Positions 3,880 through 45,284 of a stretch of DNA of 64,000 nt are shown one piece after another; position 1 is the stretch's first letter; the number at the start of each line of letters is the position of its first letter. Source of the stretch: Mizuhopecten yessoensis (lineage: Eukaryota); NCBI RefSeq assembly GCF_002113885.1, contig NW_018407955.1, positions 833,649-897,648 on the forward strand, read 5' to 3'. The position numbers and the translations under genes were made by a program. Under the pieces are notes generated by a model. That model ran no database searches, was not told the DNA's origin, and worked only from the letters and a program-made list of their open reading frames with translations.

Positions 3880-4091
3880 TTCAAAGGAACTAGATCAGGT
3901 TTCAAACCCTGGACTGCAAATTGTTGTGCTGATGCTTTAACCAACTGAGCTGCCTGGTTAACATAAGTGCTCTGATCTTATTGTGCTACAGTTATATCGA
4001 AAATGAAATTAAGTAGAGGTTTCTCTATATCAGAAAAAAACGGAATGGAATCTCTAGTGTTTCGCCTGCAGTGGCATGAAGATCCTTAATG
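3880..4091 (-). mobile_element. Partial copy of the same TIR/tRNA-like element: the tRNA-like module plus one terminus (GCAGTGGCATGAAGATCCTTAA at 4069-4091). It abuts the 30-bp minisatellite.
   Basis: Sequence similarity to 300-480 (…CCAACTGAGCTGCCTGG…CTACAGTTATATCGAAAATGAAATTAAG…). Confidence 0.6.
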
Positions 4092-4127
4092 TGACTGGCT
4101 CTGGTACATAATGTCAATGGTAGAAAC

Positions 4128-6063
4128 TGATGTATTGTTAGCTGTATGGTTTGACCCTGATGTATTGTTAGCTGTATGATTTGACCCTGATGTATTGTTA
4201 GCTGAATGATCTGACCCTGATGTATTGTTAGCTGTATGATCTGACCCTGATGTATTGTTAGCTGTATGATTTGACCCTGATGTATTGTTAGCTGAATGAT
4301 CTGACCCTGATGTATTGTTAGCTGTATGATTTGACCCTGATGTATTGTTAGCTGTATGATTTGACCCTGATGTATTGTTAGCTGTATGATTTGACCCTGA
4401 TGTATTGTTAGCTGTATGATTTGACCCTGATGTATTGTTAGCTGTATGATTTGACCCTGATGTATTGTTAGCTGTATGATTTGACCCTGATGTATTGTTA
4501 GCTGTATGATTTGACCCTGATGTATTGTTAGCTGTATGATTTGACCCTGATGTATTGTTAGCTGTATGATTTGACCCTGATGTATTGTTAGCTGTATGAT
4601 CTGACCCTGATGTATTGTTAGCTGTATGATTTGACCCTGATGTATTGTTAGCTGTATGATTTGACCCTGATGTATTGTTAGCTGTATGATTTGACCCTGA
4701 TGTATTGTTAGCTGTATGATTTGACCCTGATGTATTGTTAGCTGTATGATTTGACCCTGATGTATTGTTAGCTGTATGATTTGACCCTGATGTATTGTTA
4801 GCTGTATGATTTGACCCTGATGTATTGTTAGCTGTATGATTTGACCCTGATGTATTGTTAGCTGTATGATTTGACCCTGATGTATTGTTAGCTGTATGAT
4901 TTGACCCTGATGTATTGTTAGCTGTATGATTTGACCCTGATGTATTGTTAGCTGTATGATTTGACCCTGATGTATTGTTAGCTGTATGATTTGACCCTGA
5001 TGTATTGTTAGCTGTATGATTTGACCCTGATGTATTGTTAGCTGTATGATTTGACCCTGATGTATTGTTAGCTGTATGATTTGACCCTGATGTATTGTTA
5101 GCTGTATGATTTGACCCTGATGTATTGTTAGCTGTATGATCTGACCCTGATGTATTGTTAGCTGTATGATTTGACCCTGATGTATTGTTAGCTGTATGAT
5201 TTGACCCTGATGTATTGTTAGCTGTATGATCTGACCCTGATGTATTGTTAGCTGTATGATTTGACCCTGATGTATTGTTAGCTGTATGATTTGACCCTGA
5301 TGTATTGTTAGCTGTATGATCTGACCCTGATGTATTGTTAGCTGTATGATCTGACCCTGATGTATTGTTAGCTGTATGATTTGACCCTGATGTATTGTTA
5401 GCTGTATGATTTGACCCTGATGTATTGTTAGCTGTATGATTTGACCCTGATGTATTGTTAGCTGTATGATTTGACCCTGATGTATTGTTAGCTGTATGAT
5501 TTGACCCTGATGTATTGTTAGCTGTATGATCTGACCCTGATGTATTGTTAGCTGTATGATCTGACCCTGATGTATTGTTAGCTGTATGATCTGACCCTGA
5601 TGTATTGTTAGCTGTATGATTTGACCCTGATGTATTGTTAGCTGTATGATCTGACCCTGATGTGTTGTTAGCTGTATGATCTGACCCTGATGTATTGTTA
5701 GCTGTATGATCTGACCTTGATGTATTGTAAGCTGTATGATTTGACCCTGATGTATTGTTAGCTGTATGATCTGACCCTGATGTGTTGTTAGCTGTATGAT
5801 CTGACCCTGATGTGTTGTTAGCTGTATGATCTGACCTTGATGTATTGTAAGCTGTATGATTTGACCCTGATGTGTTGTTGTTAGCTGTATGATCTGACCC
5901 TGATGTGTTGTTAGCTGTATGATCTGACCTTGATGTATTGTAAGCTGTATGATTTGACCCTGATGTGTTGTTAGCTGTATCTTTGACCCTGATAAATTGT
6001 TAGCTGTATGATTTGACCCTGATGTATTGTTAGCTGTATTATTTGACCCTGATGTGTTGTTCA
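4128..6063. repeat. Minisatellite with a 30-bp unit GCTGTATGATTTGACCCTGATGTATTGTTA, about 64 copies. T/C and A/G variants occur at two positions, and the distal end is degenerate.
   Basis: Direct reading of the sequence. It produces the artefactual 690-aa minus-strand ORF 4025-6097 ((TIHQGQIIQL)n). Confidence 0.97.
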
Positions 6064-7145: not shown

Positions 7146-7387
7146 TTTATCGTTATTTGTGTAATGATCAAACACATGTCTGTGGTAGTCGGAGGGTTGA
7201 ACACTTTAATGTAAGTTACACCAGCTAAAAGTCTACTTATTATCTTTACTTTTGTTGGGTTGTATTAGATTTAACGTCCTCCTCAAGACATCCCCTTTAC
7301 TTTTTGTAAGATAATGTCTCAAGGAGAACTATAATAATATTTCTATGGCATTTTGGTGGCTCTTAACTAATACTGTCAGCTTAACTA

Positions 7388-7478
7388 TTAACCCATTTAT
7401 CCCCAAAGTCACATTTGAACCTTACCAAATCAAAGACTGGGCAAGTCCAGTTTAAATTTGTAGGGGTGAATGAGTTCA
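7388..7478. mobile_element. Palindromic MITE, subfamily B (TTAACCCATTTATCCCCAAAGTCACATTTGAACCTTACCAAATCAAAGACTGGGCAAGTCCAGTTTAAATTTGTAGGGGTGAATGAGTT).
   Basis: Same termini, with the internal variant shared by 23098-23160 and 47060-47115. Confidence 0.7.
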
Positions 7479-11328: not shown

Positions 11329-11989
11329 TTAATGCCTACAGATTCAAGATAATTAGAATCTGTGTACCTAGTGTGAGGTACCTATGACCTTGTCAGCATC
11401 TGATAATTAGGTCAAGGTCATAGCAGTGACCAGTAACTATATATATATAATGGTCTTAACCCTGAGGCAAACCAGCTATCCATAGAATGATTGCAAGACC
11501 CTGTTCAGAGGTCCAAATACAAATTACTTCTCAGCTCTAGGAATCAAAGCGTGTCTATCAGCTCGCGGGAGTTGAAATTCTTTCATAAGCGTTTAATGTA
11601 AACATGTGCTGAACAGTGTCTTTACCGTGTTCTGCCTGATTTTCTGAGTTAATGCCCGTTTTATGTCTCTCTATTACTGAGTTATTGCACAAACGCCCAG
11701 GATTTATCATTTGAAGATGATTTGATTTCATCTGAGGTTGTAAAGGGATTATGGTTTTGGCATGCAATCAGTGGGAAGTAAAAGCCATGAAATGTTTATT
11801 TATAAATGTCAGTTACAAGTTCATAACCATGGTTTTGTAACATTTTATGACCTTAGTGTAGAAAGGTCATACAAACCACTCACTCCTGTCAGCTAGTGAT
11901 GGAAATAGAAGCTCAAGGTTATGAATATATACAGGATATGTATGTATTGTTTTGGAAACTATAGTTTCATGATTTACAGGTTAACTCAA

Positions 11990-12125
11990 TCATTTTATAA
12001 TGAACTATTCCATCCTTTGAATTGGGAGAGTTTAATTGTGTCTTCAGTGCATGGTGAATAATTTGAACTCTTCCATTTTAAAGGTTGGAAGAGTTCATTA
12101 TAAAATTTCAGGGGTGAATGAGTTA
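11990..12125. mobile_element. Palindromic MITE, about 1.5 copies: a partial unit followed by a full unit ending AATTTCAGGGGTGAATGAGTTAAGG.
   Basis: GAACTATTCCATCCTTTGAATTGGGAGAGTTTAATTGTGTCTTCAGTGCATGGTGAATAATTTGAACTCTTCCATTTTAAAGGTTGGAAGAGTTCATTATAAAATTTCAGGGGTGAATGAGTTAAGG. It overlaps ORFs 11995-12273 and 12036-12236, which are artefacts. Confidence 0.7.
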
Positions 12126-12194
12126 AGGATACCTGTCCCAGGTATTGCACTGAGGTTGTTCCTATATACAGTAACCTACCATAAATTTTGTTTT

Positions 12195-12380
12195 GGATAT
12201 AACTGCAGCACAGGTGGGTCAGAACACTTCCATTGACCAGGTAGCTCTGTTGGTTAAAGCGATAGTATAACAATCTAAGGTTCTGGGTTCAAATCCTGTT
12301 TAACCTCACATACTGTTCACATTCATAACACTGTTGTTGATGATATTTTGTTTATTTCATCCATATTATGTTTTTAAAGA
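12195..12380 (+). mobile_element. tRNA-like SINE portion of the same family, with no TIR (GGATATAACTGCAGC…GACCAGGTAGCTCTGTTGGTTAAAGCG…GGTTCAAATCC… and the tail TTTAACCTCACATACTGTTCAC…TTTATTTCATCC). Related tRNA-like fragments are at 12470-12545 and 12655-12740.
   Basis: A-box/B-box-like motifs. Same head and tail as 28245-28420 and 53100-53290. Confidence 0.6.
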
Positions 12381-12763
12381 CATCTCCCCATGAATGGTTC
12401 TCTTTTCTGAAATGATTAATCAAAGCTATAGTCATGCCAGAAAAATAAGTTTCGATCACAGTTACAGTGTTTGGCAGTGGTACGGGGATCCTTAAGTCTT
12501 AGTTCAGAGGTTTAGGGTTTGAATCCTGGTCTGGCTATTGAGATTTCCGAGTCCTTCTATATTTCGTGCCTGGATATTTATATGAATGGAATATGGTATT
12601 CTTTATGTCTTTAGTATTGACTTCGTTCAAGAAGGGAAAAATGAAGTGGAACTGGAATAATGGTCGGGTCATCATTGACCGGGTGACTAAGCTGGTAACT
12701 AGTAGATCATCCATCTAGAGTTCAGAGGTAACTGGTTCAGTGTGACAATCTTCCACTCTTTTT

Positions 12764-12829
12764 CTTCTTCTTCTTCTTCTTCTTCTTCTTCTTCTTCTTC
12801 TTCTTCTTCTTCTTCTTCTTCTTCTTCTT
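12764..12829. repeat. (CTT)n microsatellite, about 22 units. A (GTCT)n microsatellite follows at 12937-12991 and again at 17056-17090.
   Basis: Read directly. Confidence 0.95.
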
Positions 12830-13213: not shown

Positions 13214-16200
13214 CCAGTTGTATTTGGTGTCCTTTCTACTGTCAACCATGACTTTGTCTTAGTTGTATATGGTATCCTATCTACTGTCAACCATAACTTT
13301 GTCTTAGTTGTATATGGTATCCTATCTATTGTCAACCATGACTTTGTCTTAGTTGTATATGGTGTCCTATCTACTGTCAACCATGACTTTGTCTGAGTTG
13401 TATATGGTATCCTATCTACTGTCAACCATGACTTTGTCTTAGTTGTATATGGTGTCCTATCTATTGTCAACCATAACTTTGTCTGAGTTGTATTTGGTAT
13501 CATATCTATTGTCAACGATGACTTTGTCTGAGTTGTATATGGTATCCTATCTACTGTCAACCATGACTTTGTCTTAGTTGTATTTGGTGTCCTCCATAAC
13601 TTTGTCTTAGTTGTATATGGTTTCCTATCTACTGTCAACCATAACTTTGTCTGAGTTGTATTTGGTGTCCTATCTATTGTCAACCATAACTTTGTCTTAG
13701 TTGTATATGGTTTCCTATCTACTGTCAACCATGACTTTGTCTGAGTTGTATTTGGTATCATATCTATTGTCAACCATGACTTTGTCTGAGTTGTATATGG
13801 TATCCTATCTACTGTCAACCATGACTTTGTCTTAGTTGTATTTGGTGTCCTATCTACTGTCAACCATGACTTTGTCTTAGTTGTATTTGGTGTCCTATCT
13901 ACTGTCAACCATGACTTTGTCTTAGTTGTATTTGGTGTCCTATCTACTGTCAACCATGACTTTGTCTTAGTTGTATTTGGTGTCCTATCTACTGTCAACC
14001 ATGACTTTGTCTTAGTTGTATTTGGTGTCCTATCTACTGTCAACCATGACTTTGTCTTAGTTGTATTTGGTGTCCTATCTACTGTCAACCATGACTTTGT
14101 CTTAGTTGTATTTGGTGTCCTATCTACTGTCAACCATGACTTTGTCTTAGTTGTATTTGGTGTCCTATCTACTGTCAACCATGACTTTGTCTTAGTTGTA
14201 TTTGGTGTCCTATCTACTGTCAACCATGACTTTGTCTTAGTTGTATTTGGTGTCCTATCTACTGTCAACCATGACTTTGTCTTAGTTGTATTTGGTGTCC
14301 TATCTACTGTCAACCATGACTTTGTCTTAGTTGTATTTGGTGTCCTATCTACTGTCAACCATGACTTTGTCTTAGTTGTATTTGGTGTCCTATCTACTGT
14401 CAACCATGACTTTGTCTTAGTTGTATTTGGTGTCCTATCTACTGTCAACCATGACTTTGTCTTAGTTGTATTTGGTGTCCTATCTACTGTCAACCATGAC
14501 TTTGTCTTAGTTGTATTTGGTGTCCTATCTACTGTCAACCATGACTTTGTCTTAGTTGTATTTGGTGTCCTATCTACTGTCAACCATGACTTTGTCTTAG
14601 TTGTATTTGGTGTCCTATCTACTGTCAACCATGACTTTGTCTTAGTTGTATTTGGTGTCCTATCTACTGTCAACCATGACTTTGTCTTAGTTGTATTTGG
14701 TGTCCTATCTACTGTCAACCATGACTTTGTCTTAGTTGTATTTGGTGTCCTATCTACTGTCAACCATGACTTTGTCTTAGTTGTATTTGGTGTCCTATCT
14801 ACTGTCAACCATGACTTTGTCTTAGTTGTATTTGGTGTCCTATCTACTGTCAACCATGACTTTGTCTTAGTTGTATTTGGTGTCCTATCTACTGTCAACC
14901 ATGACTTTGTCTTAGTTGTATTTGGTGTCCTATCTACTGTCAACCATGACTTTGTCTTAGTTGTATTTGGTGTCCTATCTACTGTCAACCATGACTTTGT
15001 CTTAGTTGTATTTGGTGTCCTATCTACTGTCAACCATGACTTTGTCTTAGTTGTATTTGGTGTCCTATCTACTGTCAACCATGACTTTGTCTTAGTTGTA
15101 TTTGGTGTCCTATCTACTGTCAACCATGACTTTGTCTTAGTTGTATTTGGTGTCCTATCTACTGTCAACCATGACTTTGTCTTAGTTGTATTTGGTGTCC
15201 TATCTACTGTCAACCATGACTTTGTCTTAGTTGTATTTGGTGTCCTATCTACTGTCAACCATGACTTTGTCTTAGTTGTATTTGGTGTCCTATCTACTGT
15301 CAACCATGACTTTGTCTTAGTTGTATTTGGTGTCCTATCTACTGTCAACCATGACTTTGTCTTAGTTGTATTTGGTGTCCTATCTACTGTCAACCATGAC
15401 TTTGTCTTAGTTGTATTTGGTGTCCTATCTACTGTCAACCATGACTTTGTCTTAGTTGTATTTGGTGTCCTATCTACTGTCAACCATGACTTTGTCTTAG
15501 TTGTATTTGGTGTCCTATCTACTGTCAACCATGACTTTGTCTTAGTTGTATTTGGTGTCCTATCTACTGTCAACCATGACTTTGTCTTAGTTGTATTTGG
15601 TGTCCTATCTACTGTCAACCATGACTTTGTCTTAGTTGTATTTGGTGTCCTATCTACTGTCAACCATGACTTTGTCTTAGTTGTATTTGGTGTCCTATCT
15701 ACTGTCAACCATGACTTTGTCTTAGTTGTATTTGGTGTCCTATCTACTGTCAACCATGACTTTGTCTTAGTTGTATTTGGTGTCCTATCTACTGTCAACC
15801 ATGACTTTGTCTTAGTTGTATTTGGTGTCCTATCTACTGTCAACCATGACTTTGTCTTAGTTGTATTTGGTGTCCTATCTACTGTCAACCATGACTTTGT
15901 CTTAGTTGTATTTGGTGTCCTATCTACTGTCAACCATGACTTTGTCTTAGTTGTATTTGGTGTCCTATCTACTGTCAACCATGACTTTGTCTGAGTTGTA
16001 TATGGTATCCTATCTACTGTCAACCATATCTTTGTATTAGTTGTATTTGGTGTCCTATCTACTGTCAACCATGACTTTGTCTGCGTTGTATTTGGTGTCC
16101 TATCTACTATCTACCATAACTTGTTCTTAGTTGTATTTGGTGTCCTATATACTGTCAACCATAACTTTGTCTTAGTCGTATATGGTATCCTATCTACTGT

Positions 16201-16350
16201 CAACCAAGACTTTGTCTGAGTTGTATTTGGAGTCCTATCTACTGTCAACCATAACTTTTTCTTAGTTGTATTTGGTGTCCTATCTACTGTCTACCATAAC
16301 TTGTTCTTAGTTGTATTTGGTGTCCTATCCACCCTCAACCATAACTTTGA
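13214..16350. repeat. Minisatellite with a 45-bp unit CAACCATGACTTTGTCTTAGTTGTATTTGGTGTCCTATCTACTGT, about 69 copies. The central roughly 50 copies are near-identical and the flanks are more diverged.
   Basis: Read directly. 45 bp equals 15 codons, which yields the artefactual 952-aa ORF 13210-16068 ((WLTVDRTPNTTKTKS)n). Confidence 0.97.
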
Positions 16351-17317: not shown

Positions 17318-20300
17318 TACACAGGGTAGTTTATATCTGTCTAACACGTTTGTTTGCTTTCCGTGTTCCAAGGGGGTGGAAGGCCCACGAAGAAACAACA
17401 AATCCCTGGTACTGAGGTAAACAACTGAAATAGTTTGACAAGGTATAACCACCATATACTTTCCACAAATTTCTTATTTGTATTTGTATATGAAGCCCAG
17501 ATGGCGATTCTTAATGATGTAGATGACCCCAACTGGTTTGAAAAAATGCTCAAAAATATCTTAAAATCTTCGTTTCTTTTGGTGCTTACCAGGTATGTGA
17601 ATTTCAACGGGTGTAACCCTACGATATACTGCTGAAAATTTGAAAATACAGTAGGGTCATCCCCTAAATGGTCCATCATTTTGAAGTCTGTCGTTTCAGT
17701 ATAATGAAAACTTTCCAGTCAGGTTTACAAATTCTTCAATCAAGCTTATAGTTTGATATTTGCAATCAGTAAAACTGCTCTAAATATGAGAAGGCCCAAA
17801 AATTGAATTAGGGTAAGAGTACAGAGCTAAGGACTTATTTGTATTTATTGCATTACTGAAAATACGAAAAAATCATACCAGTTTATACCAGTTACAGATG
17901 ATCACTGGTCTGCTGCTATATTTGTATTATTGAAGCATTGCTCTGACATGCTGGCTACCTCAAACTCATACTGTGGTTCAACAGCTGCCAGTCACATCTT
18001 TCAAAACAAAAAATGCTGAGGTGTTCCACATGAGTTAATACACACATGTGGAACACCTCAACATTTTTCTGGTTCAGTAAGCTATCAGCGCTGAAGCATG
18101 GCATGTTTATGAGTGTAGGACTGCTGTCAATCACCAATCACCAGGTTGTTCCGTTGGTTACATGATTACATGCAGGGCCTGATTACACACTTGCCAACCT
18201 TATTTAAATTTTTCATCAGGGAGAAACCATACAGCAAAATACGAAAATCTCTTGAAATGTTTTAGCATTAAATACGATATATCTTCAGCTTTTCTATGCA
18301 AAAAATAATTGAATTAAGCTAAAAGGGATGATGAAGGGAATTCCTGTTTTAACAGTCCAAAAACACTATGAAAAAACCTTAATGTAAGGAAACCTGATAG
18401 GTGCTACCCTAGACATTACACATTGAATCAGTGATTTGTGTTAGAGTTATCTCCCTTAAGAACTTTTTTATGCTCCCCCAATTATGGGTTTTTTAGAATG
18501 GGGATGTCTGTCAACACATTCTTGGTTGTACCACCCCTCCTAAAGTTTAGAGTTGAATTTTCATGAAACTCCAAAGTCAACATTCTCTAAAGTTGTGTAT
18601 ATCTTGATCAAGCCTTTTTTTAACGGAGTTATTTATGCCCATTTTCTTTCTGGTTTTCCATTTATAATTTTTGTGCAAAGTACTGCTACTTCTCTTCTTG
18701 ATTGATATTCATATCCATACATAACCAATAAATAAAAATTCAAGTGTAGATATTTCTGCGCTAATATGAACAAACACGAAAAAATGTGCATTACTACTTT
18801 TACAGTATAAGGTTTGTGTTAAATATTGGCTCTGGCCGATTTCACACCAGCTTGTCATTTATCCCATACACGTATATAGCTTTGCTTGTGTTGTTGTGGT
18901 AATACTGAATGATTGTCTCCAGAGAGTCCCTCTGTACCAGTCGGAGAGAATATGATATGCAATTATTGAGAGCTATCAAGTTTTTACCATCATCAATGAT
19001 TTGATTATCACTTTGGCTGGAATGGTTGGCCTCTGATCAACGCCAGGCAATCAGATCGTTCTGTTAAATGGGGTTAGTGTGGAACGGAGTACGCAAAGGT
19101 TAGATAATGCTGAAATATGTTGTTTTATATATTTAAAGCTGACAGTGCAAGTTAAAAAGCTTCAAATTGAGATTTAAAAAAAAAGTTTTTCTGGTTTTGA
19201 GATGATCTTGCGTGACAATCTCTTCTAACGCTGACATTTTAGAATGTACTTGCTTGGTAACGAATAAGGGTCTCTCTAGGTATAAAAATAGCATTACCCG
19301 TCAAACCGGTTATCATTTGTTCATTTGTTCAACATGTGCGCAAGGTGACACTACCATACTATATAAATAGAAACTTTCATGATTTTGAACCAACATCTTT
19401 TATCAGATAAGCAGAGTAAAATGGAAATGGAAGACATCAAAGATATCATTTATCTAAGAAAAACGGAAATATTAGTGAAATATGACCAATTAAAGTATCT
19501 GATCTCAGCCCCCCCCCCCCCAAAACATACCACTGACACTGATGCGTACCTTTTAGATTTCTCCTAGTTATAACATTGTATCTGAAAAACAGTACTAATT
19601 CCAATCATTTCCATGATAATGATAAAATTTCACAATGTTGACTTCTTTGAAATTCAGCTCTGAAAAGAAAACCATACCTTTCAGGATTAAGATGATATAA
19701 ACAAAACATAACCAGCAAGAGTTTTTCTGGATGTATAACTTGAGCAGGGCTAGACTGGGCTCCACAACCTAGACTTTGGATTGTTGTCCTATTGCTCAAA
19801 TGGACTGAGCTTCCTGACCAACTGAAGTGTCCTGGCACCGCTGTGCTACAGTTACAGTTGTGTGACCGCACAACGCACCTAAAATACCGTCCACACATCG
19901 TCCACACACCATCCCCACATCGTCCACACATGGTGCGCACAACTGTGCAATTTAACAATCGTTCACCCTTCACCTGGTTTTCACACATTGGCGAGTTACG
20001 TAAGTGCCCAGGGTGGGGGATAACTACGGTCCAGGTACAGGTACAAAGTGGCTTTGTTTACCTGTATTGCCGAGACTGTGTTGTAATTTTACATGTTTCG
20101 ATTTAGGTTGTTTAAAAAACACCAAAAACACCATTTCTAAATTAAAGAAAGTATAAACAGTAAGATAAGTTTAAAGATATAGCTAGGATATAGAAACATA
20201 CTAAATAATCAAGTCTATGTGTTTATAACACATGCATTAAACCGTATATATTGTTAAGGCATTCCTCAATTTACACCAACCACGATTGTTATCGCACAAC

Positions 20301-20464
20301 ATTCGCCCATCATCCGCACAAATGTGTGCAAGCAATGATCGTCCAATTTTTTATCGTTCGAACTTCGCGCACAAATCGTTCACACACCGTGCACACATCG
20401 TGCGCACACCGCACATCGTGTAACGTTGTGCGATCCCACAATCGTATATGCAACATGAAATTAA

Positions 20465-20531
20465 AGGGAAGTCACTGTATATACGAAAAACTACAGTGCT
20501 GTTGGACAGGGATCCTTAAGGACCACCTTCA
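20465..20531. mobile_element. Isolated about 65-bp terminal fragment of the TIR element (…GTCACTGTATATACGAAAAACTACAGTGCTGTTGGACAGGGATCCTTAAG). A second such fragment is at 44465-44531 and others at 21380-21423 and 24470-24542.
   Basis: Near-identical termini ending in CAGGGATCCTTAA(G/A). Confidence 0.65.
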
Positions 20532-20695
20532 TTACATGACATCCCTGGAGGAAAACCTGTCTAAGGTGTCCACTCTAATGAAGAAAAACCTCTATTATTT
20601 GACCAACTTTACATAATCAAGCAGAATGAATCTGCAGGGATCATTAGGATCAATAGAAATGGTTTAGTAGTACGACATGTGTTGTATTTGACCCT

Positions 20696-21423
20696 TAAAG
20701 ATCCCTGTACCACTGCCAAAAACTGTTAATCTGTAATGCAAACTGACTTTTTTAGAATGACTATAGCTTTGATAAATCATTTCTGAAAAGAAAACCATAC
20801 CTTATGTGATTTTATGAAAAATAAAAAAGATTAAATAAACAAAATATAATCAACACTGGTGTTCTGAGTGTAGAGAAATAAAACTGCATGGCTAGACCTG
20901 GATTTAAACCTTAAACTTCAGACTGCTAATCAATTGCTATAATCTATTGAGCTACCTGGTCGACGAAAGTATACTGGTCCAATTGTTCTACAGTTATATC
21001 CAAATGGAAGTTAAGGTTATTGCATGTAGGAACAAGCCATCGGGATTGATATGTCTCTCCTGTGCCCTGCTTTGACCATCAATGCACATGTCAAGTTTGG
21101 TTGGTCTAGCACTTATAATTTCAGAGAAACTAAGTTAAACGCAAAAACCTTATGTTGATTGAGATGCTGACAAAGTCAATGGACCATGAAAGGTAGGCCG
21201 CATCAGCATTAGATGCATGGGTTGAGATGTACTACCTAAGATGCATCTATGATCTAAGTTTGGTTGGTGTAGCACTTATTCTTTCAGTATGAATGGGTTA
21301 AACGCAAAAACTTAATGTTGATGCCGCCGCTGTTGACGAAAAAAAGCAACACCTGAGTCTCACTTCCGCTACTTCGTGGCGGCGAGACAAAAACCAAAGT
21401 GCAGGGGGACAGGGATCCTTAAT
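20696..21423 (-). mobile_element. TIR/tRNA-like element, long copy of about 728 bp bounded by TTAA on both sides. The internal segment of about 65 bp is duplicated (21095-21160 and 21250-21320).
   Basis: Left terminus CTTAAAGATCCCTGTACCACTGCCAAAAACTG, right terminus GCAGGGGGACAGGGATCCTTAA, and a tRNA-like module at about 20880-20960 (reverse complement …GTAGCTCAATAGATTATAGC…GTTTAAATCCAGG…). Confidence 0.7.
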
Positions 21424-22870: not shown

Positions 22871-23097
22871 ATCCTGTAGGATAGACTGGCCCCTTTGCTC
22901 TTGATTTCTAATCAGCGGATTCTATATCAAACAAGCGGCACTGCTACAGGGCATAATGTAGAAGGGCTTCAAAAATACACACTAGTTGCTACATAGTGTA
23001 AAATCATTCAATCAACATTCTTTGCCTTTTTTCTTTGTCTTACTTACTACCTATGGAGTCCTAACTCATTCACCCCTACATATATAAACTGGACTTG

Positions 23098-23160
23098 CCC
23101 AGTATTTGATTTGATAAGGTTCAAATGTGACTAAAGGGATGAATGGGTTAAATGTGGAGT
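23098..23160. mobile_element. Partial palindromic MITE of subfamily B, in reverse orientation (…TTGATTTGATAAGGTTCAAATGTGACTAAAGGGATGAATGGGTTAAATG).
   Basis: Matches the reverse complement of the 7388-7440 type. Confidence 0.6.
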
Positions 23161-23886: not shown

Positions 23887-24542
23887 TTAAGGATTCCTGT
23901 ACCACTAACAAAAATTGTAACAACCTTTTTCCTCCAGATACAAATATTTACATTTGCGTCCTCCTTCCTTTGTAATGCATTGAGAGAGGCAAATGTGATG
24001 TGAGACTATAACAACATTTGCTATTGCAATGTCATCAATCTCTTTTTTCACCAATTTTGTTATTATATTATGTCAACACTTACGGTTAATTTGCTGTTCA
24101 AACGACTGTTAGAAATAACTAAACAAAGCATATAACTACTCTATCACAATGTAAATATAAATAATGTATGTTTTAGCAAATATTGTTATGGTCCTATAAC
24201 AAACATTTCTGTTACTGACAAACTTATACATAAAGCCCTACTAGGCTTTATTAAGTTTGTCATCAATAGTTATGTCTGTTATATAGGACCATAACAACAT
24301 TTGCGAAAATATTCATTGCTTAAATGGCTTTGATAAATCATTTCAAAAAATAAAACCATACTGTCCGGAATAATTGTGAAAAATTATAAAAATGAAATGA
24401 ACAGAAATGAAATCAACAACAGTGTGACCAGATTAGGATTTGAACCCAGAACTTCTTATCATTGAGCATAATGTAGGGGAGGTAACTTTAAGTATGAAAA
24501 AAAATCATAGTAGTATGCCTGCTGTGGGACAGGAATACTTAA
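23887..24542 (-). mobile_element. TIR/tRNA-like element, about 655-bp copy bounded by TTAA on both sides.
   Basis: Termini TTAAGGATTCCTGTACCACTAACAAAAATTG and CTGTGGGACAGGAATACTTAA. A tRNA-like module lies at about 24420-24480 (reverse complement …GGGTTCAAATCCTAATCTGGTCACAC). Confidence 0.7.
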
Positions 24543-25679: not shown

Positions 25680-25765
25680 CTAACTCATTGACCCCTGAAG
25701 ACACATTTGCACAATTAAAAAGTTGGAATAGTTCATTATGAAATTTCAGGGGTAAATGAGTGAAT
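25680..25765. mobile_element. Palindromic MITE copy (TAACTCATTGACCCCTGAAGACACATTTGCACAATTAAAAAGTTGGAATAGTTCATTATGAAATTTCAGGGGTAAATGAGTGAAT).
   Basis: Family termini present. Confidence 0.75.
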
Positions 25766-28088: not shown

Positions 28089-28181
28089 TAACTCATTCAT
28101 CCCTTAAGACATATTTAAACTCATCCAATTTAAATGTTGGAATAGTTCATTATGAAATTATAGGGGTGATTGAGTTAAGAG
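28089..28181. mobile_element. Palindromic MITE copy (TTAACTCATTCATCCCTTAAGACATATTTAAACTCATCCAATTTAAATGTTGGAATAGTTCATTATGAAATTATAGGGGTGATTGAGTTAAG).
   Basis: Family termini present. It lies immediately beside the TIR/tRNA composite at 28193. Confidence 0.75.
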
Positions 28182-28192
28182 ACCACCTGCAT

Positions 28193-29232
28193 TAAGGATC
28201 CTTGTCCCACTGCACTGTGGGTTTTCCTATGCTCAGTCACCTTCCCTTGTGGATATAACTGTAGAACAACTTGGCCTAGACACTTTGACCAGGTAGCTCA
28301 ATTAGTAAGTGCAATGATATTACAATCTGAAGTTCCGGATTCGAATCCTGGACACGGCCCACATTTTTAATCACTGTCCTACTACCTCGCACAAATGTAT
28401 CACAAGAAAAAAAAGGCAGCAAGGTAGGACATATGTTCAATAAAAGGAATGAAGGTGCAGTGTTTTGTTTTGAACTTTTTGGAACATGTTCAACCCGCAT
28501 TTTCAGTCAATAAATTTGTTTAAACAAGCCCTGCTCAGCCACAAGTTCTACAGAGTTTGATCCCCATTGTGCTGGTAGGCCGGTTCAACTCCTGGCGTCA
28601 GGGGCACCATCATGTCTGGCCTCCAAATAGGATCTTAAAATATTTGTTTGGATATTGTTCACTTCATGGAAGCCCTAGGTGAAAGTATTGGTTGTCAGTG
28701 TGAAATTTAATGATTTATGTCTCTGTGTGAAACAAAATAAAATTAAGGATCCCCTCCCCCTTCCACTGCCAAAAAACTGTAACACATTGGAGACTAATTT
28801 TTCCGGCACGAGTTCAGTTTTACTAAATCATTTCTGAAAAGAAGACCGCACCTTGCGGAACTTTTATGAAAAATAATGAAGATAAAATAAACCAAAGTAA
28901 ATGAAAAGTGTTTTGAGCGGGAAAAAAAATATCAGGGCTCTACAAGAATTTGAACCCTGGACCTATGCTTGTTATACTGTCACGTTAACAGACTGAGCTA
29001 CCTCGTCAATGAAAGCACGCTGGCCCATTTGTGCTGAAGTTCAGGGTTCCAATCCTGGACACGGCCCATATTTTTAATCACTGTCCTCCTACCTCGCACA
29101 AATGTATTACAAGAAGAAAAGGCAGCAAAGTAGAACATTTATCTAATAGAAGGAATGAAGGTGCCATGTGAAATTAAGGAGAGGTTACTGTATATGTAAA
29201 CAAATGCAGTGAAGTGGAACAGGGATTCTTAA
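28193..29232 (+). mobile_element. Composite of two elements. The outer TIR/tRNA-like element is in + orientation (left TIR 28193-28225, tRNA-like head 28290-28370, right TIR 29205-29232). It is interrupted by a nested minus-orientation copy of the same family (28743 to about 29040) and a duplication of about 110 bp of the outer element body (28340-28450 repeated at 29040-29160).
   Basis: TTAAGGATCCTTGTCCCACTGCACTGTGGG…GACCAGGTAGCTCAATTAGTAAG…GGATTCGAATCCTGGACACGGCCC, then TTAAGGATCCCCTCCCCCTTCCACTGCCAAAAAACTG…(minus-strand tRNA-like module 28950-29030)…, then resumption at TTCCAATCCTGGACACGGCCCATATTTTTAATCACTGTCC…GCAGTGAAGTGGAACAGGGATTCTTAAG. Confidence 0.6.
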
Positions 29233-29899
29233 GTGTGTTTGAATACATACTTTTCGGAAGTGGCTACTGTTGAAAATAAGCTACTTGAAACATTTGACTC
29301 AAAGTTTTTAAAGCATCCAGGATCCTTTACATTGCAAAACAAAAGTATGTTCTATTTGGTATTTTTGTATACACACGACATATATGATGTTAAATACAGT
29401 AGTTTCCTTAACCTCTAGGGACAATTATCAAGTCAGATACGGTGGGCAGAAAAGAAATTTGAATACCATATGAAATAGTTCCTACATACATGGGGGTGAC
29501 ATCTGTGTGTCGTGACACCCAACAATCTGCCATTATTGATTTCCTATCCTTTTCCTCCCAATTTATTGTCCTTTGTCCAAAAAATTACGATAATTTGTGC
29601 TGGCATCAGGAGGGCTCAGAGGTGGTAAGATTGACTTTAATATGGCTACTGCATTCCTGGGGTCAATGACATCAGCTCCGCTCTGCTGTTCTGTGGTGTG
29701 ATTATTTTAGATGCAAATAATATTCCGTTTTTTCCACATTTGGTCCTGTTTGATGTGTTTTTGGTTAAGGTATCAATTTGGTCTATATTGTACATCACAC
29801 ATTCAGTTACATACCATTACGTATCAATGGAAAAATATTACACTGGGCAAATATGGATTCTTAACTCTAGCACAAATCACATTTTAAATGTATAATGTA

Positions 29900-30821: not shown

Positions 30822-32158
30822 TGTTCAGGGTCACAAGGGTCAGGTATTTGGTTGTGTAAGGTTCACAAGGGTCAGGTATTTGGTTGTGTAGGGTTCACAA
30901 GGGTCAGACATTTGGTTTTGTAGGGTTCACAAGTGTCAGACATTTGGTTGTGTAGGCTTCCCAAGGTTAGATATTTGGCCCGGTAGTTTGACAGGGTCAG
31001 GGATTTAGTTGTGAAGAGTTCAAATAGGTTAGATATTTGGCTATGTAGGTTTACAGGGTCAGACATTTGGTTGTGTAAGGTCCACAAGGGTCAGGTATTT
31101 GGTTGTGTAGGGTTCACAAGGTTAGATATTTGGCTCTGTAGGTTTACAGGGTCAGACATTTGGTTGTGAAGGGTGCATATAGGTTAGATATTTGGCTCTG
31201 TAGGTACACAAGGGTCAGATATTTGATTGTGCAGGGTTCACAAGGGTCAGGTATTTGCTTGTGTAGGGTTCACAAGGGTTAGCTATTTGGTAGTGAAGGG
31301 TATGCAAGGTCAGATATTTGGTAGTGTAGGGTTCACATGGGTCAGACATTTGGTTGTGTAGAGTTCACAAGGGTCAGACATTTGGTTGTGTAGGGTTCAC
31401 AAGGGTCAGACATTTGGTTGTGTAAGGTTCACAGGGTTAGATATTTGGCTCTGTAGGTTGACAGGGTCAGATATTTAGTTGTGAAGAGTTCAAATAGGTT
31501 AGATATTTGGTTTTGTAGGGTTCACAAGGGTCAGACATTTGGTTGTATAGGGTTCACAAGGGTTAGACATTTGGTTGTGTAGGGTTCACATGGGTCAGAC
31601 ATTTGGTTGTGTAAGGTTCACAAGGTTAGATATTTGGCTCTGTAGGTTGACAGAGTCAGATATTTGGTTGTGAAGAGTTCAAATAGGTTAGATATTTGGC
31701 TCTGTAGGGTTCACAAGGGTAAGATATTTGCTTGTGTAGGGTTCACAAGGGTTAGATATTTGGTTGCGAAGGGTTCACAAGGGTCAGATTTTTGGCTCTG
31801 TAGGGTTGACAAGGGTAAGATATTGGGTTGTGTAGGGTTCATAGGGGTCAGATATTTGCTTGTGTAGGGTTCTCAATGGTAAGATATTTGCTTGCATAGG
31901 ATTCAGAAGGGTTAGATATTGGGGTTTAAGGGTTCATAAGAGTCAGCTATTGGGTTGTGCTAAGGGTTCATAAGGGTCAGATATTTGCTTGTGAAGGGTT
32001 CACAAGAGTCAGATATTTGGTTGTGTAGGGTTCACAAGGGTAAAATATTGGGTTGTATAGGGTTAATAAGAGTCAGCTATTGGGTTGTGCTAAGGGTTCA
32101 TAAGGGTCAGATATTTGCTTGTGTAGGGTCTACAAGAGTCAGCCATTCGGTTGTGAAA
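30822..32158. repeat. Minisatellite with a 32-33 bp unit GGGTTCACAAGGGTCAGACATTTGGTTGTGTA, about 40 copies with many point variants.
   Basis: Read directly. Explains ORFs 30872-31087, 31664-31867 and 31985-32179. Confidence 0.95.
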
Positions 32159-33514: not shown

Positions 33515-35822
33515 ATGTGCTATAGTGCTAACTTTCCTCTACTATTTAATACTATAGTGCTAACTTTCCTCTACTATTTAATACTATAGAGCTAACCTTC
33601 CTCTACTATTTAATACTATAGAGCTAAACTTCCTCTACTATTTAATATTGTAAAGCTTACCTTCCTCTACTATTTGATACTATAGAGCTAAACTTCCTCT
33701 ACTATTTAATACCATAAAGCTAACCTTCCTCTACTATTTCATACTATAGAGCTAAACTTCCTCTACTATTTAGTACTGTAGAGCTAACCTTCCTCTTCTA
33801 TTTAATACTATAGAGCTAACCTTCCCCTACTATTTAGTACTGTAGAGCTAACCTTCCTTTACTATTTAATACTATAGGGCTAACTTTCCTCTACTATTTA
33901 AGGTTGTAGAGCTAACCTTCCTCTACTATTTTAATAATATGGTGCTAACCTCCCTCCACTATTTAGTACTGTAGAGCTAACCTTCCTTTACTATTTAATA
34001 CTGTAAAGCTTACATTCCTCTACTATTTAATACTATAAAGTTACCTTCCTCTACTATTTAATACTGTAAAGCTTACCTTCCTCTACTATTTGATACTGTA
34101 GCGCTAACATTCCTAAAGAGTACTGTAGAACTTCCCTTCCTCTACTATTTAATATCATACAGCTAACCTTCTGCTACTATTTAATACTGTAGGGCTAACC
34201 TTCATTTACTATTAAATACTATAGAGCTAACCTTCCTCTTCTATTTAATACTAAAGAGCTAACCTTCCTCTTCTATTTTAATACTATGGTGTTAACCTTC
34301 CTCTACTATTTAGTACTGTAGAGCAAACCTCCCTCTACTATTTAATATTATATATCTTATATGCCTCTTTTATTGCAATACCGTAGAGCTAACTTTCCTC
34401 TACTATTTAATACTATAGTGCTAACTTTCCTCTACTATTTAATACTATAGTGCTAACTTTCCTCTACTATTTAATACTATAGAGCTAACCTTCCTCTACT
34501 ATTTAATACTGTAAAGCTTCCCTTCCTTTACTATTTAATACTGTAAAGCTTACATTCCTCTACTATTTAATACTGTAAAGCTTACCTTCCTCTACTATTT
34601 GATACTGTAGCGCTAACATTCCTAAAGAGTACTGTAGAACTTCCCTTCCTCTACTATTTAATATCATACAGCTAACCTTCTGCTACTATTTAATACTGTA
34701 GGGCTAACCTTCATTTACTATTAAATACTATAGAGCTAACCTTCCTCTTCTATTTTAATACTATGGTGTTAACCTTCCTCTACTATTTAGTACTGTAGAG
34801 CTAACATTCCTCTACTATTTAGTACTGTAGAGCAAACCTCCCTCTACTATTTAATATTATATATCTTATATGCCTCTTTTATTTCAATACCGTAGAGCTA
34901 ACTTTCCTCTACTATTTAATACTATAGTGCTAACTTTCCTCTACTATTTAATACTATAGAGCTAACCTTCCTCTACTACTTAATACCATACAGCTAACTT
35001 TCCTCTACTTTTTAATACCATAGCGCTAACCTTCCTCTACTACTTAATACCATAGAGCTAACCTTCCTCTACTATTTAGTACTGTAGAGCTAACCTCCCT
35101 CTACTATTTAATATTATATATCTTATATGCCTCTTTTATTGCAATACCGTAGAGCTAACTTTCCTCTACTATTTAATACTATAGAGCTAACCTTCCTCTG
35201 GTATTTTAATACTATGGTGCTAACCTTCCTCTACTATTTAGTACTGTAGAGCAAACCTTCCTCTACTATTTAGTACTGTAGAGCAAACCTTCCTCTACTA
35301 TTTAGTACTGTAGAGCTCCCCTCCCTCTACTATGCTATAGTGCTAACTTTCCTCTACTATTTAATACTATAGAGCTAACCTTCCTCTACTACTTAATACC
35401 ATAGAGCTAACCTTCCTCTACTATTTAGTACTGTAGAGCTAACATTCCTCTACTATTTAGTACTGTAGAGCAAACCTTCCTCTACTATTTAGTACTGTAG
35501 AGCTCCCCTCCCTCTACTATTTATTACTGTAGAGCTTACCTTCCTCTACTATTTTAATACTATGGTGCTAACCTCCCTCCACTATTCAGTATTGTAGAGC
35601 TAACCTCCCTCCACTATTCAGTATTGTAGAGCTAACCATCCTCCACTATTCAGTATTGTAGAGCTAACCATCCTCCACTATTCAGTATTGTAGAGCTAAC
35701 CTTCTTCCACTATTCACTATTGTAGAGCTAACCTTCCTTCACTATTCAGTATTGTAGAGCTAACCATCCTCCACTATTCAGTATTGTAGAGCTAACCATC
35801 CTCCTCTACTATCTAATACTAT
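33515..35822. repeat. Minisatellite with a 33-34 bp unit CTACTATTTAATACTATAGAGCTAACCTTCCT, about 68 copies. A higher-order periodicity is marked by ATATTATATATCTTATATGCCTCTTTTATTGCAATACCGTAGAGC recurring at about 34335, 34850 and 35105.
   Basis: Read directly. Blocks 34380-34860 and 34900-35160 repeat the same order of unit variants. Confidence 0.95.
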
Positions 35823-37830: not shown

Positions 37831-38003
37831 ATGAAGAAGTGATCTTAATTTAATCCATATGTCTAACATGAAATAGTGTCTTTTATAATTGAAGTCTTGT
37901 GTCTCTATGAAGTCATGTGTAATTGAAGCCAAGTGTTTAATGTTATGTTTTGTATATTGCAGATCGGGACAAAGATGACAGCCATCAACATGTAGACCAC
38001 CAG

Positions 38004-40406
38004 ATGGATGAGTATAGTAATGACAATCGCCATGGAAACAAAAGGAAGCCAGCCATCCACAAATCTTCAAAGTCTGGAGCGCACTCTCAGTCGAGTGGTG
38101 TCCATGGTAATAATAGTCGACGGTCATCTGAGCCACAGTTGGCCACCAGAGGGAGTGACATGTCTAGAGAAAGAAAGGATAAGGTCAAACCTTCGAACCA
38201 TTGTATACAAGATGGTCAAAATGGTGCAGCAGGCGAGGGAAGGGACAGAAACTCTGTCAGACAAAAGCTTGACTCAAGTGATGGATCCGACGATCAAGGC
38301 ATCGGCAACAGGAGAGATTCCGGCAGGAGTAACCGTGCAGAAAGATCTAAAAAGTATGCCACCTGGGACAAAAACATGCAGAAACGACGAGCCAAAGTGT
38401 TGCAGCTGCAACAGGAAGGGCAGACAAGTGCTGATGATACCTTCATCAACAAAAAGGGGAGGCAACTCCCTGACAACTATTACAAACTGTCACGGAGTAT
38501 CTCAACAGACCTGGCAACTTTGCGCAACAAGACTCAGATGCTGCAATCAGCTAGTGTTTACAACACAAGCGGGGATATGTCAGCGCCATATACCCAAATC
38601 TCAAAATCTTCTTCCCAGAGTCAAAAGACTTCAGTCAACAATCACTGGCAGGCATTTGACCAATCAAAACACAGTAACTTGTACAACTCGGCAGGGACAC
38701 AGAATAACTACAGTGAGAACATTCCTAAACAGCGGACCATGTCTCTCGGTGACGTACGACGGTCAGCTTTTTACCGCATCAACTCAAACACCCCTTCCAT
38801 TCCCTCCTCACCCTCCGATCACAAGGACACATACATTGACATAGACAGCCTCATAGCCAATGACATCCACGCCCATCAAGCGGAAGAGAATGAAAGGGCC
38901 TTCCCGACACTGGAAGGGTACAGACGTCACGGTTTGACACACAGCTTTCCCAGTGCACCCTACACAACACTAAAACATTTAAGTGAGAAAAGTATATGTT
39001 CCTCTTTGCTAGGATTAATGATGTTCCTTATAGCCGGCTTTGTGCTATTTCTACCTCTGGCAGCCATCTTTCTAATTCTATGCCCCTTGTGTTTCTTTGT
39101 GAAGAAAATATTTTCATGCTGTTGTTGCTATGGAAAAAAGTGTCAATGTGGAACTCTCCTATCTCCAAAGGAGAGAGCATGGGCAGAAAATTTGGAAACC
39201 AGCACCGTTGTGTACCAATGTGTTGTTATAGTGGAGTATGGTCTAACGACCTACAAAATACGGGAGTTGGTGAGAAATCGACTAATAAAGGCAACAGATA
39301 AAAATGGCAATAGATTATATCCAAAATTTACAAAGAAAATTGTGAATACTTTTTCTGGCCCATCTTGGATTCAGGATGAGGCTTTCCTAATAAACAACCA
39401 CGTTTTTAATATGCCTTCCTCCATAGAAAATATGGAGGACCTCCAGGAATATATATCAGAATCTAGCTCGAAACCTCTCTCTATGCACCATCCTCTGTGG
39501 GAAATCCAGGTTCTGACCGACTTTGCCGATCAGCGAGACACGGTTGTATTGTTGCGCATTCATCCATGTATCGCTGACGGAATCTCACTCGTACAACTTC
39601 TGTATAAGGCTATTGTGGATATGGAGTCCATCACCATCGCTATGCCAAAGTTCTCTAGTCGTCGGCGTTTCTGTAATGCCGTCCAGGCATTCTTCAGTGG
39701 CCCGTTGGTTTTTTTGAAACAGTACGTGTTCAAAAAGCAAGATTTTAATATGCTGCATGGCCAACACATCCACGCCACGGGCAAACAGGTGATAGCTTGG
39801 TCAGAGCCGTACAGCCTTGAGCAAGCCACACGTCTTTCTCAGGTGACGCGTTCCACTCTAAATGACATCTTCCTGTCTGTCACAGCAGGTTGTCTACGTA
39901 ATTATCTGCAGACGAATGGAATTCCGAATCCGTATGACATGCAGGCCCTGGTACCTGTACACTACCATTCGGGACCCTCACCCCTTCATCTGCAAAACAA
40001 CGACTGTCTGTTTATCCCCGTCTCTATTCCTTCAAACACAGAAGGTGCCATCCCTCGACTCTGGCGGGTCAAACACATCATGGACAAGATTGGTAGTCTG
40101 GCTTTTTTCTCGGTCACACAAGGGGCCCATATGTTGTCTTCGACGATCTTGCCCCAACGGTGGTTGTATTCCATGTGGCGATCCCTGTATAGTAAGTGTA
40201 CATTTGTCATTTCTGACCTTCCAGGGCCCGAGACAACCTTGAAAATAGCCACTAAAAAAATCAAGTCTGTAATATGCTGGATGCCACCAATCCACCAGGT
40301 TGCTGTGGCGATCTCCTTCTTTACCTATGCTGACCAGGTGAGGATGTCTGTGATGGCTGACCGGACAGTCTTGCCCAACCCTGAGATGTTGACCAGGGAT
40401 TTCATT
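38004..40406 (+). CDS. Large exon of a WS/DGAT-family acyltransferase gene (wax ester synthase / acyl-CoA:diacylglycerol acyltransferase-like, PF03007 plus PF06974/DUF1298-type core). N-terminal part is low-complexity, followed by one TM helix and a Cys cluster. The 5' boundary is uncertain: the first in-frame ATG is at 38004, and a possible splice acceptor (ttgtatattgcag) lies at 37962/37963.
   Basis: 829-codon open frame. Residues align to Acinetobacter AtfA hallmarks: PLW...IHPCIADG (the HHxxxDG position, 39561-39581), TLNDIFLSVTAGCLRNYL (AtfA TINDVVLAVCSGALRAYL), ISDLPGP (AtfA ISNVPGP, 40209-40229) and AISFFTYADQVRMSVMADRTVLP (AtfA ITMTSYLDKLEVGLIACRNALP). The exon ends exactly at a phase-0 GTAAGT donor (40407-40412), three codons before the ORF stop. 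Confidence 0.8.
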
Positions 40407-40976
40407 GCCATCGTAAGTATTTTGATTGTTTTGAAGTAAGTACTGCCCTTAGTGATACGATTTGGAAAATATTTTTTTCAATAATGATGCACGGTCATTG
40501 TACTTTTAATATGGGATTCTACTTAATTATTTTTACTTCATGTATCTTCACAAACCTATGTAATCTAATGATAAATGCATGCTTCTGTAATGTTAGTCAG
40601 ATAGCCTTGTAATCACAGATGTAATCACATAGCTCAACCAAAAATCCATTTTGGTTTGAACTCATCAATTGAGGGGACGACCCATTGATCAGTGAAAAAG
40701 TAACTGACAGGGGTCACTGATGAAATCAGTAAATTGAAACAAGCAGGACATGATATTTTGGCATGATTTCCGACTGTGGTCAAGGTCATGTATTAATGAC
40801 TTTTGACATTTCATAGCATCTTGTATGCGAGTTAGCGGTTGGAGGTCATTGGGGTATAATTGTATAGTCTTGTGACCAACACCCCTCCCCCACTCCTGCA
40901 TTTCTATTTATTTAGGGTTCTTGTCCCAGTTTTTCGAAGCCCAACTAGCTAAATCAGTCATAAACAAAAAATGTTT

Positions 40977-41068
40977 TAACTCATTCACCCCTGAAGACGC
41001 ATTTAAACTCTTCCAGTTCAAAGGTTGGAATAGTTCATTATGAAATTTCAGGGGTGAATAAGTTAAAT
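40977..41068. mobile_element. Palindromic MITE, the best-preserved copy (TTAACTCATTCACCCCTGAAGACGCATTTAAACTCTTCCAGTTCAAAGGTTGGAATAGTTCATTATGAAATTTCAGGGGTGAATAAGTTAA). It lies in the putative intron 1 of the WS/DGAT-like gene.
   Basis: 19-20 bp perfect inverted termini that include TTAA. Confidence 0.8.
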
Positions 41069-41954: not shown

Positions 41955-42884
41955 GTAAGTAGATGCATAGGTGGTTAATTGTGCCATTGAAACAGGGTTT
42001 TTCTGCTGTATAGACATGAAAGAGGGGATAGACGGGGGTGGGGTGGGGTAGGGAGGTTGGGGGATGAACCGGACAGAGTGCAACAGAGAGGTATAAAAGA
42101 AAGGTAGAGGATGAGTGAAATAAATAAGATTAGATGATATAAAAAATACTTATTGGTAAAACTTCGGTTATTTAATTTCTTGAATGTTTGTGAAAGTGAA
42201 ACAATGCCAGGCTATTTATAGAGATTGATATCTATTATTAGAACATGCTTGTATTATATCTTCACTGTCAGTTGATAATGGGGATAAAGTCATCAACAAG
42301 TTGCAGACATTTCAGTACACTATGTGTTGGTCCTGTTAGCCTCAAGGGTATATACAATCACACCAAAGCTGTATCAGTGTCGGTTTTTTCTTTTTTTCCC
42401 CAAGTGACGGTTCCTTGCTGCAGTGTCGGCTGCTCAGCTGGCTTGTCAGCGATTCCACCATCTTGAAGAGAGCAGAATTTCTAGACTCTTATCATTTCAG
42501 TGATAAAAGAGAAAATCCTTTAACTATCTCTGTGGTATAAAGAAATAGAAAAAATTACCAGATATTGATGCTGCCTTGTTTACGTGATGGGAGGTGGTTT
42601 TGAAAACATGCATCAGCGCCTTTATCTTAACTTATAAAATATAGAGAGAACATTTAATAGTTACTTCTTAAATACCCTATATATTTCATGAGTTTGGCAG
42701 AATATCAATATTTATGGAAACTTAAGAATATCTTTGGTACTAGTAATATAACAAACTGCTTTAAGTTTCCCTGTCCCACTGAACTGTGTTTTTTAGCTCA
42801 CCTGGTCTGTCTCCTGTCGTCCTTCGTCCGTCCGTCAACTTTCTCTTTAAAACACTACTAGTCCTGAACAGCCAAGTAGATTTT

Positions 42885-45259: not shown

Positions 45260-45284
45260 GTAATCATCTTATTATTGATAACTT

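Follow-up and report, generated by a model that had tools for sequence, protein, structure and literature searches.

A TTAA-flanked MITE family that probably carries a decayed tRNA-derived unit as passive cargo

The window, the whole 64-kb stretch of DNA that was analysed, has a G+C content of 36.8% and is crowded with minisatellites. Six long arrays (4127-6061, 13216-16349, 30827-32155, 33523-35820, 45265-46529 and 62382-64000) have periods of 29-45 bp and 28-72 copies, with 42 copies in the array at 30827-32155. Together they make up about a fifth of the window and yield long spurious open reading frames. The only clear gene is a single-exon open reading frame of 829 amino acids on the forward strand (37950-40439), which encodes a wax-ester-synthase/DGAT (WS/DGAT) homologue with the catalytic and C-terminal domains (Pfam PF03007 and PF06974). 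Its best protein matches are from molluscs or other lophotrochozoans, the top match at 53% identity, followed by Sinanodonta (45%) and Octopus (42%). The DNA is eukaryotic, and these matches make a mollusc, perhaps a bivalve, the probable host. The downstream neighbour of the gene (45051-45230) is also conserved beside the homologue on the orthologous locus L012, indicating synteny. TTAA-flanked hairpins, near-perfect and about 100 bp long (CTCATTCACCCCTGAAATTT...AAATTTCAGGGGTGAATGAG), form one of two abundant MITE families and are located at 1848-1938, 7386-7476, 11989-12127, 23059-23151, 25681-25764, 28089-28177, 40972-41066, 44194-44275, 47758-47858 and 58992-59086. They give weak, spurious matches to Rfam microRNA models (MIR5649).

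The terminal motif of the other family, CTTAAGGATCCCTGTCCCACTG, has 10 matches with ≤3 mismatches in the window versus 0 in 100 shuffles, and a profile built from nine copies recovers all nine in a search of the window (E 1e-42 to 1e-101) along with fragments. Alignment of the nine copies from end to end gives a consensus of 361 bp, which is rough, with about 10 copies behind it that all come from the single 64-kb window. The terminal inverted repeats are 18 bp long (GGATCCCTGTMCCACTGC), and the two termini of the consensus agree at 16 of 18 positions. An extended foldback was considered and rejected, the inverted similarity of the consensus being confined to the 18-bp termini. TTAA adjoins 16 of the 17 intact ends, and the sole exception is a TTAG at copy B. 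The base just outside the TTAA is variable, and no further repeat is found in the flanks. Read on the tRNA-sense strand between its two flanking TTAAs, the consensus begins with GGATCCCTGTCCCACTGC and an arm 1 of about 90 bp. The tRNA-like segment (72 nt) comes next, then an oligo-T run, then an arm 2 of about 190 bp that includes several conserved blocks, among them ATGGTTTTCTTTTCAGAAATGATT, and finally GCAGTGGTACGGGGATCC. An earlier note on this DNA had described a TTAA-flanked family with shared inverted termini, TTAA on their outside and a conserved tail past a tRNA-like module, and all of these features are confirmed, the tail being ATGGTTTTCTTTTCAGAAATGATT and the other blocks of arm 2.

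Compact copies of the family are 330-381 bp long and have no coding capacity, only short frames broken by stops. The consensus has one 74-aa open frame, the translation of which had no match in the protein database. The 361-bp family is of MITE size (<800 bp), non-coding and bounded by inverted termini, and within the window it also has the many copies of a MITE (nine plus fragments in 64 kb). Pairwise identity among the copies is about 65%, which corresponds to about 35% divergence, and rises to 0.71-0.79 in the termini. Because of this divergence, and because later insertions are nested in four of the nine copies (C, D, F and H), the family appears to be old.

Copy D (20699-21418, tRNA-like sense on the reverse strand) is a full element of 720 bp between TTAAs at 20695-20698 and 21419-21422. 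Its inverted termini are AGATCCCTGTACCACTGC at the arm-2 end (20699-20716) and GCAGGGGGACAGGGATCC at the arm-1 end (21401-21418), and its tRNA-derived module, GACCAGGTAGCTCAATAG...GGTTTAAATCC...TCTAGCC, occupies 20890-20961 on the reverse strand. A later insertion of 361 bp in arm 1 (21036-21396), unique in the window, doubles the usual length of the element and contains an internal 67-bp duplication (21093-21159 and 21256-21322). A hairpin, GCCGCCGC...GCGGCGAG, is present near the end of this insertion.

Four further copies are complete. Copy A (12127-12491, forward) is compact at 365 bp, with TTAAs at 12123-12126 and 12492-12495, a tRNA-like part at 12235-12305 and a profile E of 1e-101. Copy B (146-475, reverse) is 330 bp long, with TTAA at 142-145, TTAG at 476-479 and its tRNA-like part at 308-375. 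Copy C (28747-29228, reverse) has TTAAs at 28743-28746 and 29229-29232, a tRNA-like part at 28936-29007 and a 122-bp insertion of a unit termed 'tail 2' (29041-29162). Copy E (53029-53409, forward) is 381 bp long, with TTAAs at 53025-53028 and 53410-53413 and its tRNA-like part at 53154-53227; the earlier description had ended this copy at 53290, and it reaches 53413 with its TTAA. Copy F (23891-24538, reverse) retains its two termini, each with a TTAA, and lacks some of arm 1 and the 5' half of the tRNA-like part. It contains a 396-bp insertion (23925-24320) that forms a hairpin with 44-nt arms.

The remaining copies are incomplete. Copy G (3886-4085, reverse) consists of arm 1 with its terminus and the tRNA-like part (3886-3959), without arm 2, and adjoins a TTAA at 4086-4089. 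Copy H (19622-20515, reverse) is without the arm-2 terminus; its tRNA-like part is at 19748-19819 and its TTAA at 20516-20519. Nested in it (19861-20454) is a 594-bp TIR element that has subrepeats of the CGTCCACACA type and inverted ends 23 nt long. Copy I (28196-28359, forward; TTAA at 28192-28195) comprises terminus, arm 1 and tRNA-like part (28287-28359) and runs on into a different 'tail 2' (to 28460), not into arm 2. The interval 28193-29232, previously taken as one element with a nested copy, thus holds two copies, I and C, in opposite orientation. Two stretches had been listed as tRNA-SINE versions lacking inverted termini, and neither is a separate class. The one at 12195-12380 is inside the complete copy A with both of its termini and both TTAAs, and the one at 48320-48400 belongs to a 90-bp fragment on the forward strand (48299-48388; profile positions 79-168, E 2e-7), which consists of the arm-1 end and most of the tRNA-like part and is without termini.

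Two copies of the 'tail 2' unit are present, at 28335-28460 and 29044-29164, each consisting of a tRNA-like 3' half plus about 100 bp that end in ...GGAATGAAGGTGCAGTG. The first directly continues the tRNA-like head of copy I (28287-28460). The second is 5'-truncated and interrupts arm 1 of copy C at a microhomology, CTGAAGTT. The two are 88.5% identical, far younger than the MITE copies.

Element J (42765-44523) is a 1.76-kb element with termini of the same family, of the arm-1 type at both ends and alike over about 30 bp, and is TTAA-bounded at 42761-44527. As cargo it carries a 156-bp unit repeated four times in tandem (42890-43560), three subterminal CTAGAAGGTGAC...TCCTATATACA motifs, a different tRNA-like piece on the reverse strand (43900-43985) and a hairpin MITE. 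Tandem-repeat-containing bivalve MITEs (Satovic and Plohl 2013, cited in PMC10294476) resemble element J only and not the 361-bp family. Insertions and truncations in the window recur at two points of arm 1, profile positions 33-38 and 78/79 (window positions 21036, 42795, 29041, 19861, 44445 and 48299). Copy D and element J are interrupted at 33-38, and copies C and H at 78/79, where two fragments also begin or end. This recurrence suggests fragile or preferred insertion sites, or junctions of modules.

Searches outside the window were made at several levels. No copy of the family was found in the 17.6-kb orthologous locus L012 of the nearest protein-database relative, whose WS/DGAT is 53% identical, and the terminal motif had zero matches in a scan of viral contigs. 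In metagenomes, the tRNA-head pattern matched eight tRNA-Lys genes of bacteria and three further sequences without relation to molluscs, namely a SINE of insect type, a tRNA-related repeat of plant type and an unclassified tRNA-like sequence. Literature searches for the literal terminal and head sequences found no match.

The tRNA-derived module starts 91-126 bp (about 105 bp) from one end of the element, farther in than the approximately 70 bp given earlier, and neither its place nor its orientation differs among the copies that span it. As had been noted, it carries an A box (TAGCTCAGTTGG) and a B box (GGGTTCGAATCC), and it is present in copies A, B, C, D, E, G, H and I; copy F keeps its 3' half only. 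The 72-nt segment reads GACCAGG TA GCTC AGTTGGTTA GAGC G ... CAGGGTTCGAATCCTTG TCTAGCC. Both boxes of the consensus are good and normally spaced. ARAGORN at default settings called the majority consensus of the nine copies a tRNA-Val(AAC) and called none of 2000 shuffles. In this consensus, the D stem (4/4) and T stem (5/5) are fully paired, the acceptor stem is paired at 5/7 and the anticodon stem at 3/5 positions. With all copies taken together, the cloverleaf register pairs 67% of cells, and slid registers pair 21-40%.

No individual copy was called a tRNA. ARAGORN made no calls in the window, and Rfam returned none for the whole window or for the interval 28150-29280 (about 1.1 kb, E≤10). 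Covariation in the cloverleaf was not above that of shuffles, 82-172 of 500 shuffles reaching the observed values, and the A and B boxes are disrupted in most single copies. Judged by a detected cloverleaf plus compensatory change, the single copies do not qualify as functional tRNA genes. The mean pairwise identity is 0.66 for the tRNA-like part and 0.64-0.67 for the arms; the A and B boxes (0.70) are slightly above the rest, and the anticodon-arm region is at 0.59. Because only the consensus folds, single copies go uncalled and covariation does not exceed that of shuffles, the module appears to be the remnant of a once tRNA-like ancestor that decays neutrally and not a maintained RNA. The window gives no sign of function in the unit or of selection on it.

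The mobilised feature of the family is its termini, because element J has the same termini and different cargo. The complete copies retain both termini and their TTAA flanks, apart from the TTAG at one end of B. From the sequence features, the family is probably a MITE with passive tRNA-derived cargo and not a working MITE/SINE hybrid.

Two TTAA-specific transposase superfamilies have been described, piggyBac and Kolobok. Kolobok elements target TTAA and have 5'-RR...YY-3' termini (PMC9587614, PMC6004289), a pattern that separates them from piggyBac (PMC9587614), the termini of which carry CC[C/T]T (PMC2872659). Kolobok elements are common in bivalves (PMC10294476, PMC9587614), and among molluscs they have been reported almost only from them (PMC10294476). 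The termini of the present family read GGATCC...GGATCC (GGAT...ATCC), which is an RR...YY pattern without CC[C/T]T. Because GG...CC fits RR...YY and not CCYT, the source transposase was most likely Kolobok rather than piggyBac, as judged by two terminal bases and the TTAA. Of the piggyBac-type character proposed in the earlier note, the TTAA stands and the termini do not agree. Mobilisation of the same MITE by a piggyBac-family transposase is unlikely: the elements are TTAA-flanked and piggyBac is present in every mollusc genome surveyed (PMC10294476), but the CC[C/T]T of piggyBac (PMC2872659) is absent and GGAT...ATCC follows the Kolobok-side RR...YY pattern (PMC9587614). An autonomous Kolobok partner would encode a DDD/E transposase with the C/DxxH signature between matching termini. 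The 64-kb window contains no transposase open reading frame, and an autonomous element with the same termini is absent from the window and from the text supplements of the KolobokP and bivalve TE papers.

Known MITEs with TTAA flanks share the general form of the family. Kolobok MITEs, for example the T2-MITE of Xenopus, are short and non-coding, have inverted termini and a TTAA target, and start with two purines and end with two pyrimidines; those of insects average about 386 bp (PMC5199201). The T2 terminal motif is AGGRR, whereas that of the present family is GGATCCC, and a tRNA-derived internal unit is not described for Kolobok MITE families in the literature found. MITEs of the piggyBac type, for example the coral CMITE, are likewise small, with TTAA flanks and short inverted termini, but their CC[C/T]T motif is absent here (GGAT...ATCC).

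The SINE-like behaviour that the earlier note attributed to the family does not agree with its structure, and four defining features of SINEs are lacking overall. The head is internal and not 5'-terminal, its boxes being 91-126 bp inside the element with arm 1 and the terminal repeat before them. Since the module is about 105 bp inside, an internally promoted pol III transcript would lose arm 1 and its terminus. Runs of T≥4, internal terminators of a kind that SINEs lack, number 3-7 past the B box on the tRNA-sense strand in every copy that has the downstream arm. In B, C, D and E the first such run follows the B box by 16-19 nt, and across the copies by 16-50 nt. No A-rich, simple-repeat or other retroposon-type 3' end is found at the element boundary, where the sequence ends in ...GGCAGTGGTACAGGGATCC followed by TTAA, and the flank is a constant TTAA in place of variable target duplications. 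With the two supposed TIR-less versions reassigned, no SINE-only form supports such behaviour. Bivalve tRNA-derived SINEs (PMC11481361, PMC4758252) resemble the family in having a tRNA head with A and B boxes, a length of roughly 200-400 bp and a high copy number. The present family differs from them in a head that is not 5'-terminal, in the lack of a LINE-type or simple-repeat tail and of variable target duplications, and in its inverted termini, its TTAA flanks and a body rich in T runs.

These features make it very unlikely that the family is a dual-nature MITE/SINE hybrid, for which box-driven pol III transcription would matter, either through LINE-partner retroposition besides DNA transposition or through a selected small RNA. 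Such a hybrid would account for the good, normally spaced boxes of the consensus and for their marginally better conservation than the anticodon-arm region (0.70 against 0.59), and TRIMp3 elements show that tRNA-derived promoters are possible in non-SINE elements (PMC10886601). The 5'-truncated tRNA 3' half with 'tail 2' at a microhomology in copy C also resembles a retroposition product. However, a transcript that starts about 105 bp inside meets T4-T8 runs 16-50 nt past the B box, retroposon-type 3' ends and variable target duplications are missing, and complete copies keep their termini and TTAA. The cloverleaf is also without covariation, and the boxes are broken in most individual copies. 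The 'tail 2' unit may be a true SINE that shares the head, or a local rearrangement. It hints at a related tRNA-headed element that moved by another route, and to that extent it counts against the reading of the family as a MITE with passive cargo, as does the slightly better conservation of the A and B boxes and of the termini.

The founder of the family held a tRNA-derived unit about 105 bp from one end, with an ancestral tRNA-Val(AAC)-like cloverleaf, A and B boxes and an oligo-T just downstream. Because its position, orientation and divergence match the arms in every copy, the module appears to have been acquired once, in this founder, and then co-amplified with the arms. The inverted termini and the tRNA-like part therefore belong to one family in the window, as had been claimed, and do not merely co-occur there. 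An 8-bp sequence, TTCCATTG, is directly repeated in the consensus, at 98-105 (just before the tRNA-like start) and at 321-328, with 7-8 of 8 matches in a region where the consensus is poorly determined. An A-rich stretch, CCAGAAAAATAAG, precedes the second TTCCATTG. The repeat hints at the footprint of a 215-bp tRNA-headed retroposon in an ancestral MITE of roughly 146 bp; it was also considered as proof of a SINE insertion and was downgraded to a hint, the consensus being weak in that region. The putative 215-bp insert is rich in T runs. Many T runs are unusual for an active SINE. Alternatively, a tRNA gene could have been captured together with its terminator and flank.

It is highly improbable that the module arose by independent site-specific insertions, with a tRNA-derived SINE repeatedly hitting one spot of a tRNA-less MITE family. 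The TTCCATTG repeat (98-105 and 321-328) and the A-rich CCAGAAAAATAAG are arranged as around one retroposed 215-bp unit, and break or insertion points do recur at profile positions 33-38 and 78/79. Yet the module is in all nine copies and none is empty, module and arms are equally diverged, and the junctions are identical from copy to copy. The direct repeat, weak evidence in any case, better suits one ancestral insertion.

Copy A and the unrelated hairpin MITE that adjoins it, itself TTAA-flanked, have the TTAA at 12123-12126 in common. A single TTAA at this position is expected if TTAA is the target and not element sequence, and TTAA would be duplicated on insertion. No paralogous empty site is present in the window, where the flanks match only the adjacent hairpin-MITE family. 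Readings of the flanks as PIF/Harbinger (TWA) or Tc1/mariner (TA) duplications were rejected, since neither accounts for the invariant T and A on the outside. That TTAA is instead the outermost inverted repeat, in a superfamily with another target duplication or none, is scarcely credible. A palindromic TTAA at both ends is formally indistinguishable from terminal sequence without empty sites, but copy A and the adjoining MITE have one TTAA and not two in tandem, no repeat continues beyond it, and 2-bp TA or 3-bp TWA readings do not explain the conserved outer T and A.

The nearest analogue of the family is TRIMp3 (Helenus, Ajax and Cassandra), a group of non-autonomous LTR retrotransposons that includes families of Crassostrea gigas and whose LTRs contain sequence derived from tRNA or 5S (Kojima 2024, PMC10886601). 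Both are non-SINE, non-autonomous elements with a consensus that contains a small-RNA-gene segment and its promoter boxes and no longer a functional tRNA fold. The proposed origin of TRIMp3 is a SINE inserted into the element (PMC10886601). The promoter of TRIMp3 can make the template for reverse transcription and so serves mobility (PMC10886601), whereas the present family would move as DNA, has terminators after the unit and shows only neutral decay, with no further constraint. In the part of the literature that was covered, no description was found of a MITE family with a tRNA-derived unit built in, or of a MITE/SINE hybrid, which does not establish novelty.

As a MITE with passive cargo, the family probably has the following history. 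The unit would have arrived once, either as a tRNA-derived SINE or pseudogene retroposed into a shorter ancestral MITE or as a captured tRNA gene with its flank. The element would then have been moved as DNA by a TTAA-specific DDE transposase acting in trans, and the unit would have been copied passively with each transposition. The tRNA-like parts of the copies would have decayed at the rate of the arms. The module would be cargo with no part in mobility, and young copies may have made at most short pol III transcripts or bound TFIIIC.

Such a history would mean that a pol III-type unit can multiply by DNA transposition, and the family would parallel the tRNA-bearing LTR elements described of late. 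It also points to an annotation hazard. SINE finders based on tRNA would call such elements SINEs, and low-threshold tRNA scanners would call them pseudogenes, though they are DNA transposons. In mollusc genomes, this misannotation would make SINE counts too high and skew the statistics of superfamilies. A bolder proposal is that DNA transposons are vehicles for pol III units, the young MITE having distributed, by cut-and-paste transposition, thousands of B boxes that bind TFIIIC or of tRNA-like genes that can be transcribed, with the heads seeding new tRNA-headed retroposons. This proposal is unlikely. If it were true, 'tail 2' (28287-28460, and 5'-truncated at 29041-29162) would be such offspring and the family a class II counterpart of TRIMp3.

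Two other tRNA-like pieces are present in the window near copy A. One, at 12504-12539, is another tRNA-like 3' half and adjoins copy A. The other, at 12640-12829, has a weak tRNA-like head (ATTGACCGGGTGACTAAGCTGGTAAC...GGTTCAGTG) and a short body followed by (TCT)24, which is the layout of a SINE with a simple-repeat tail.
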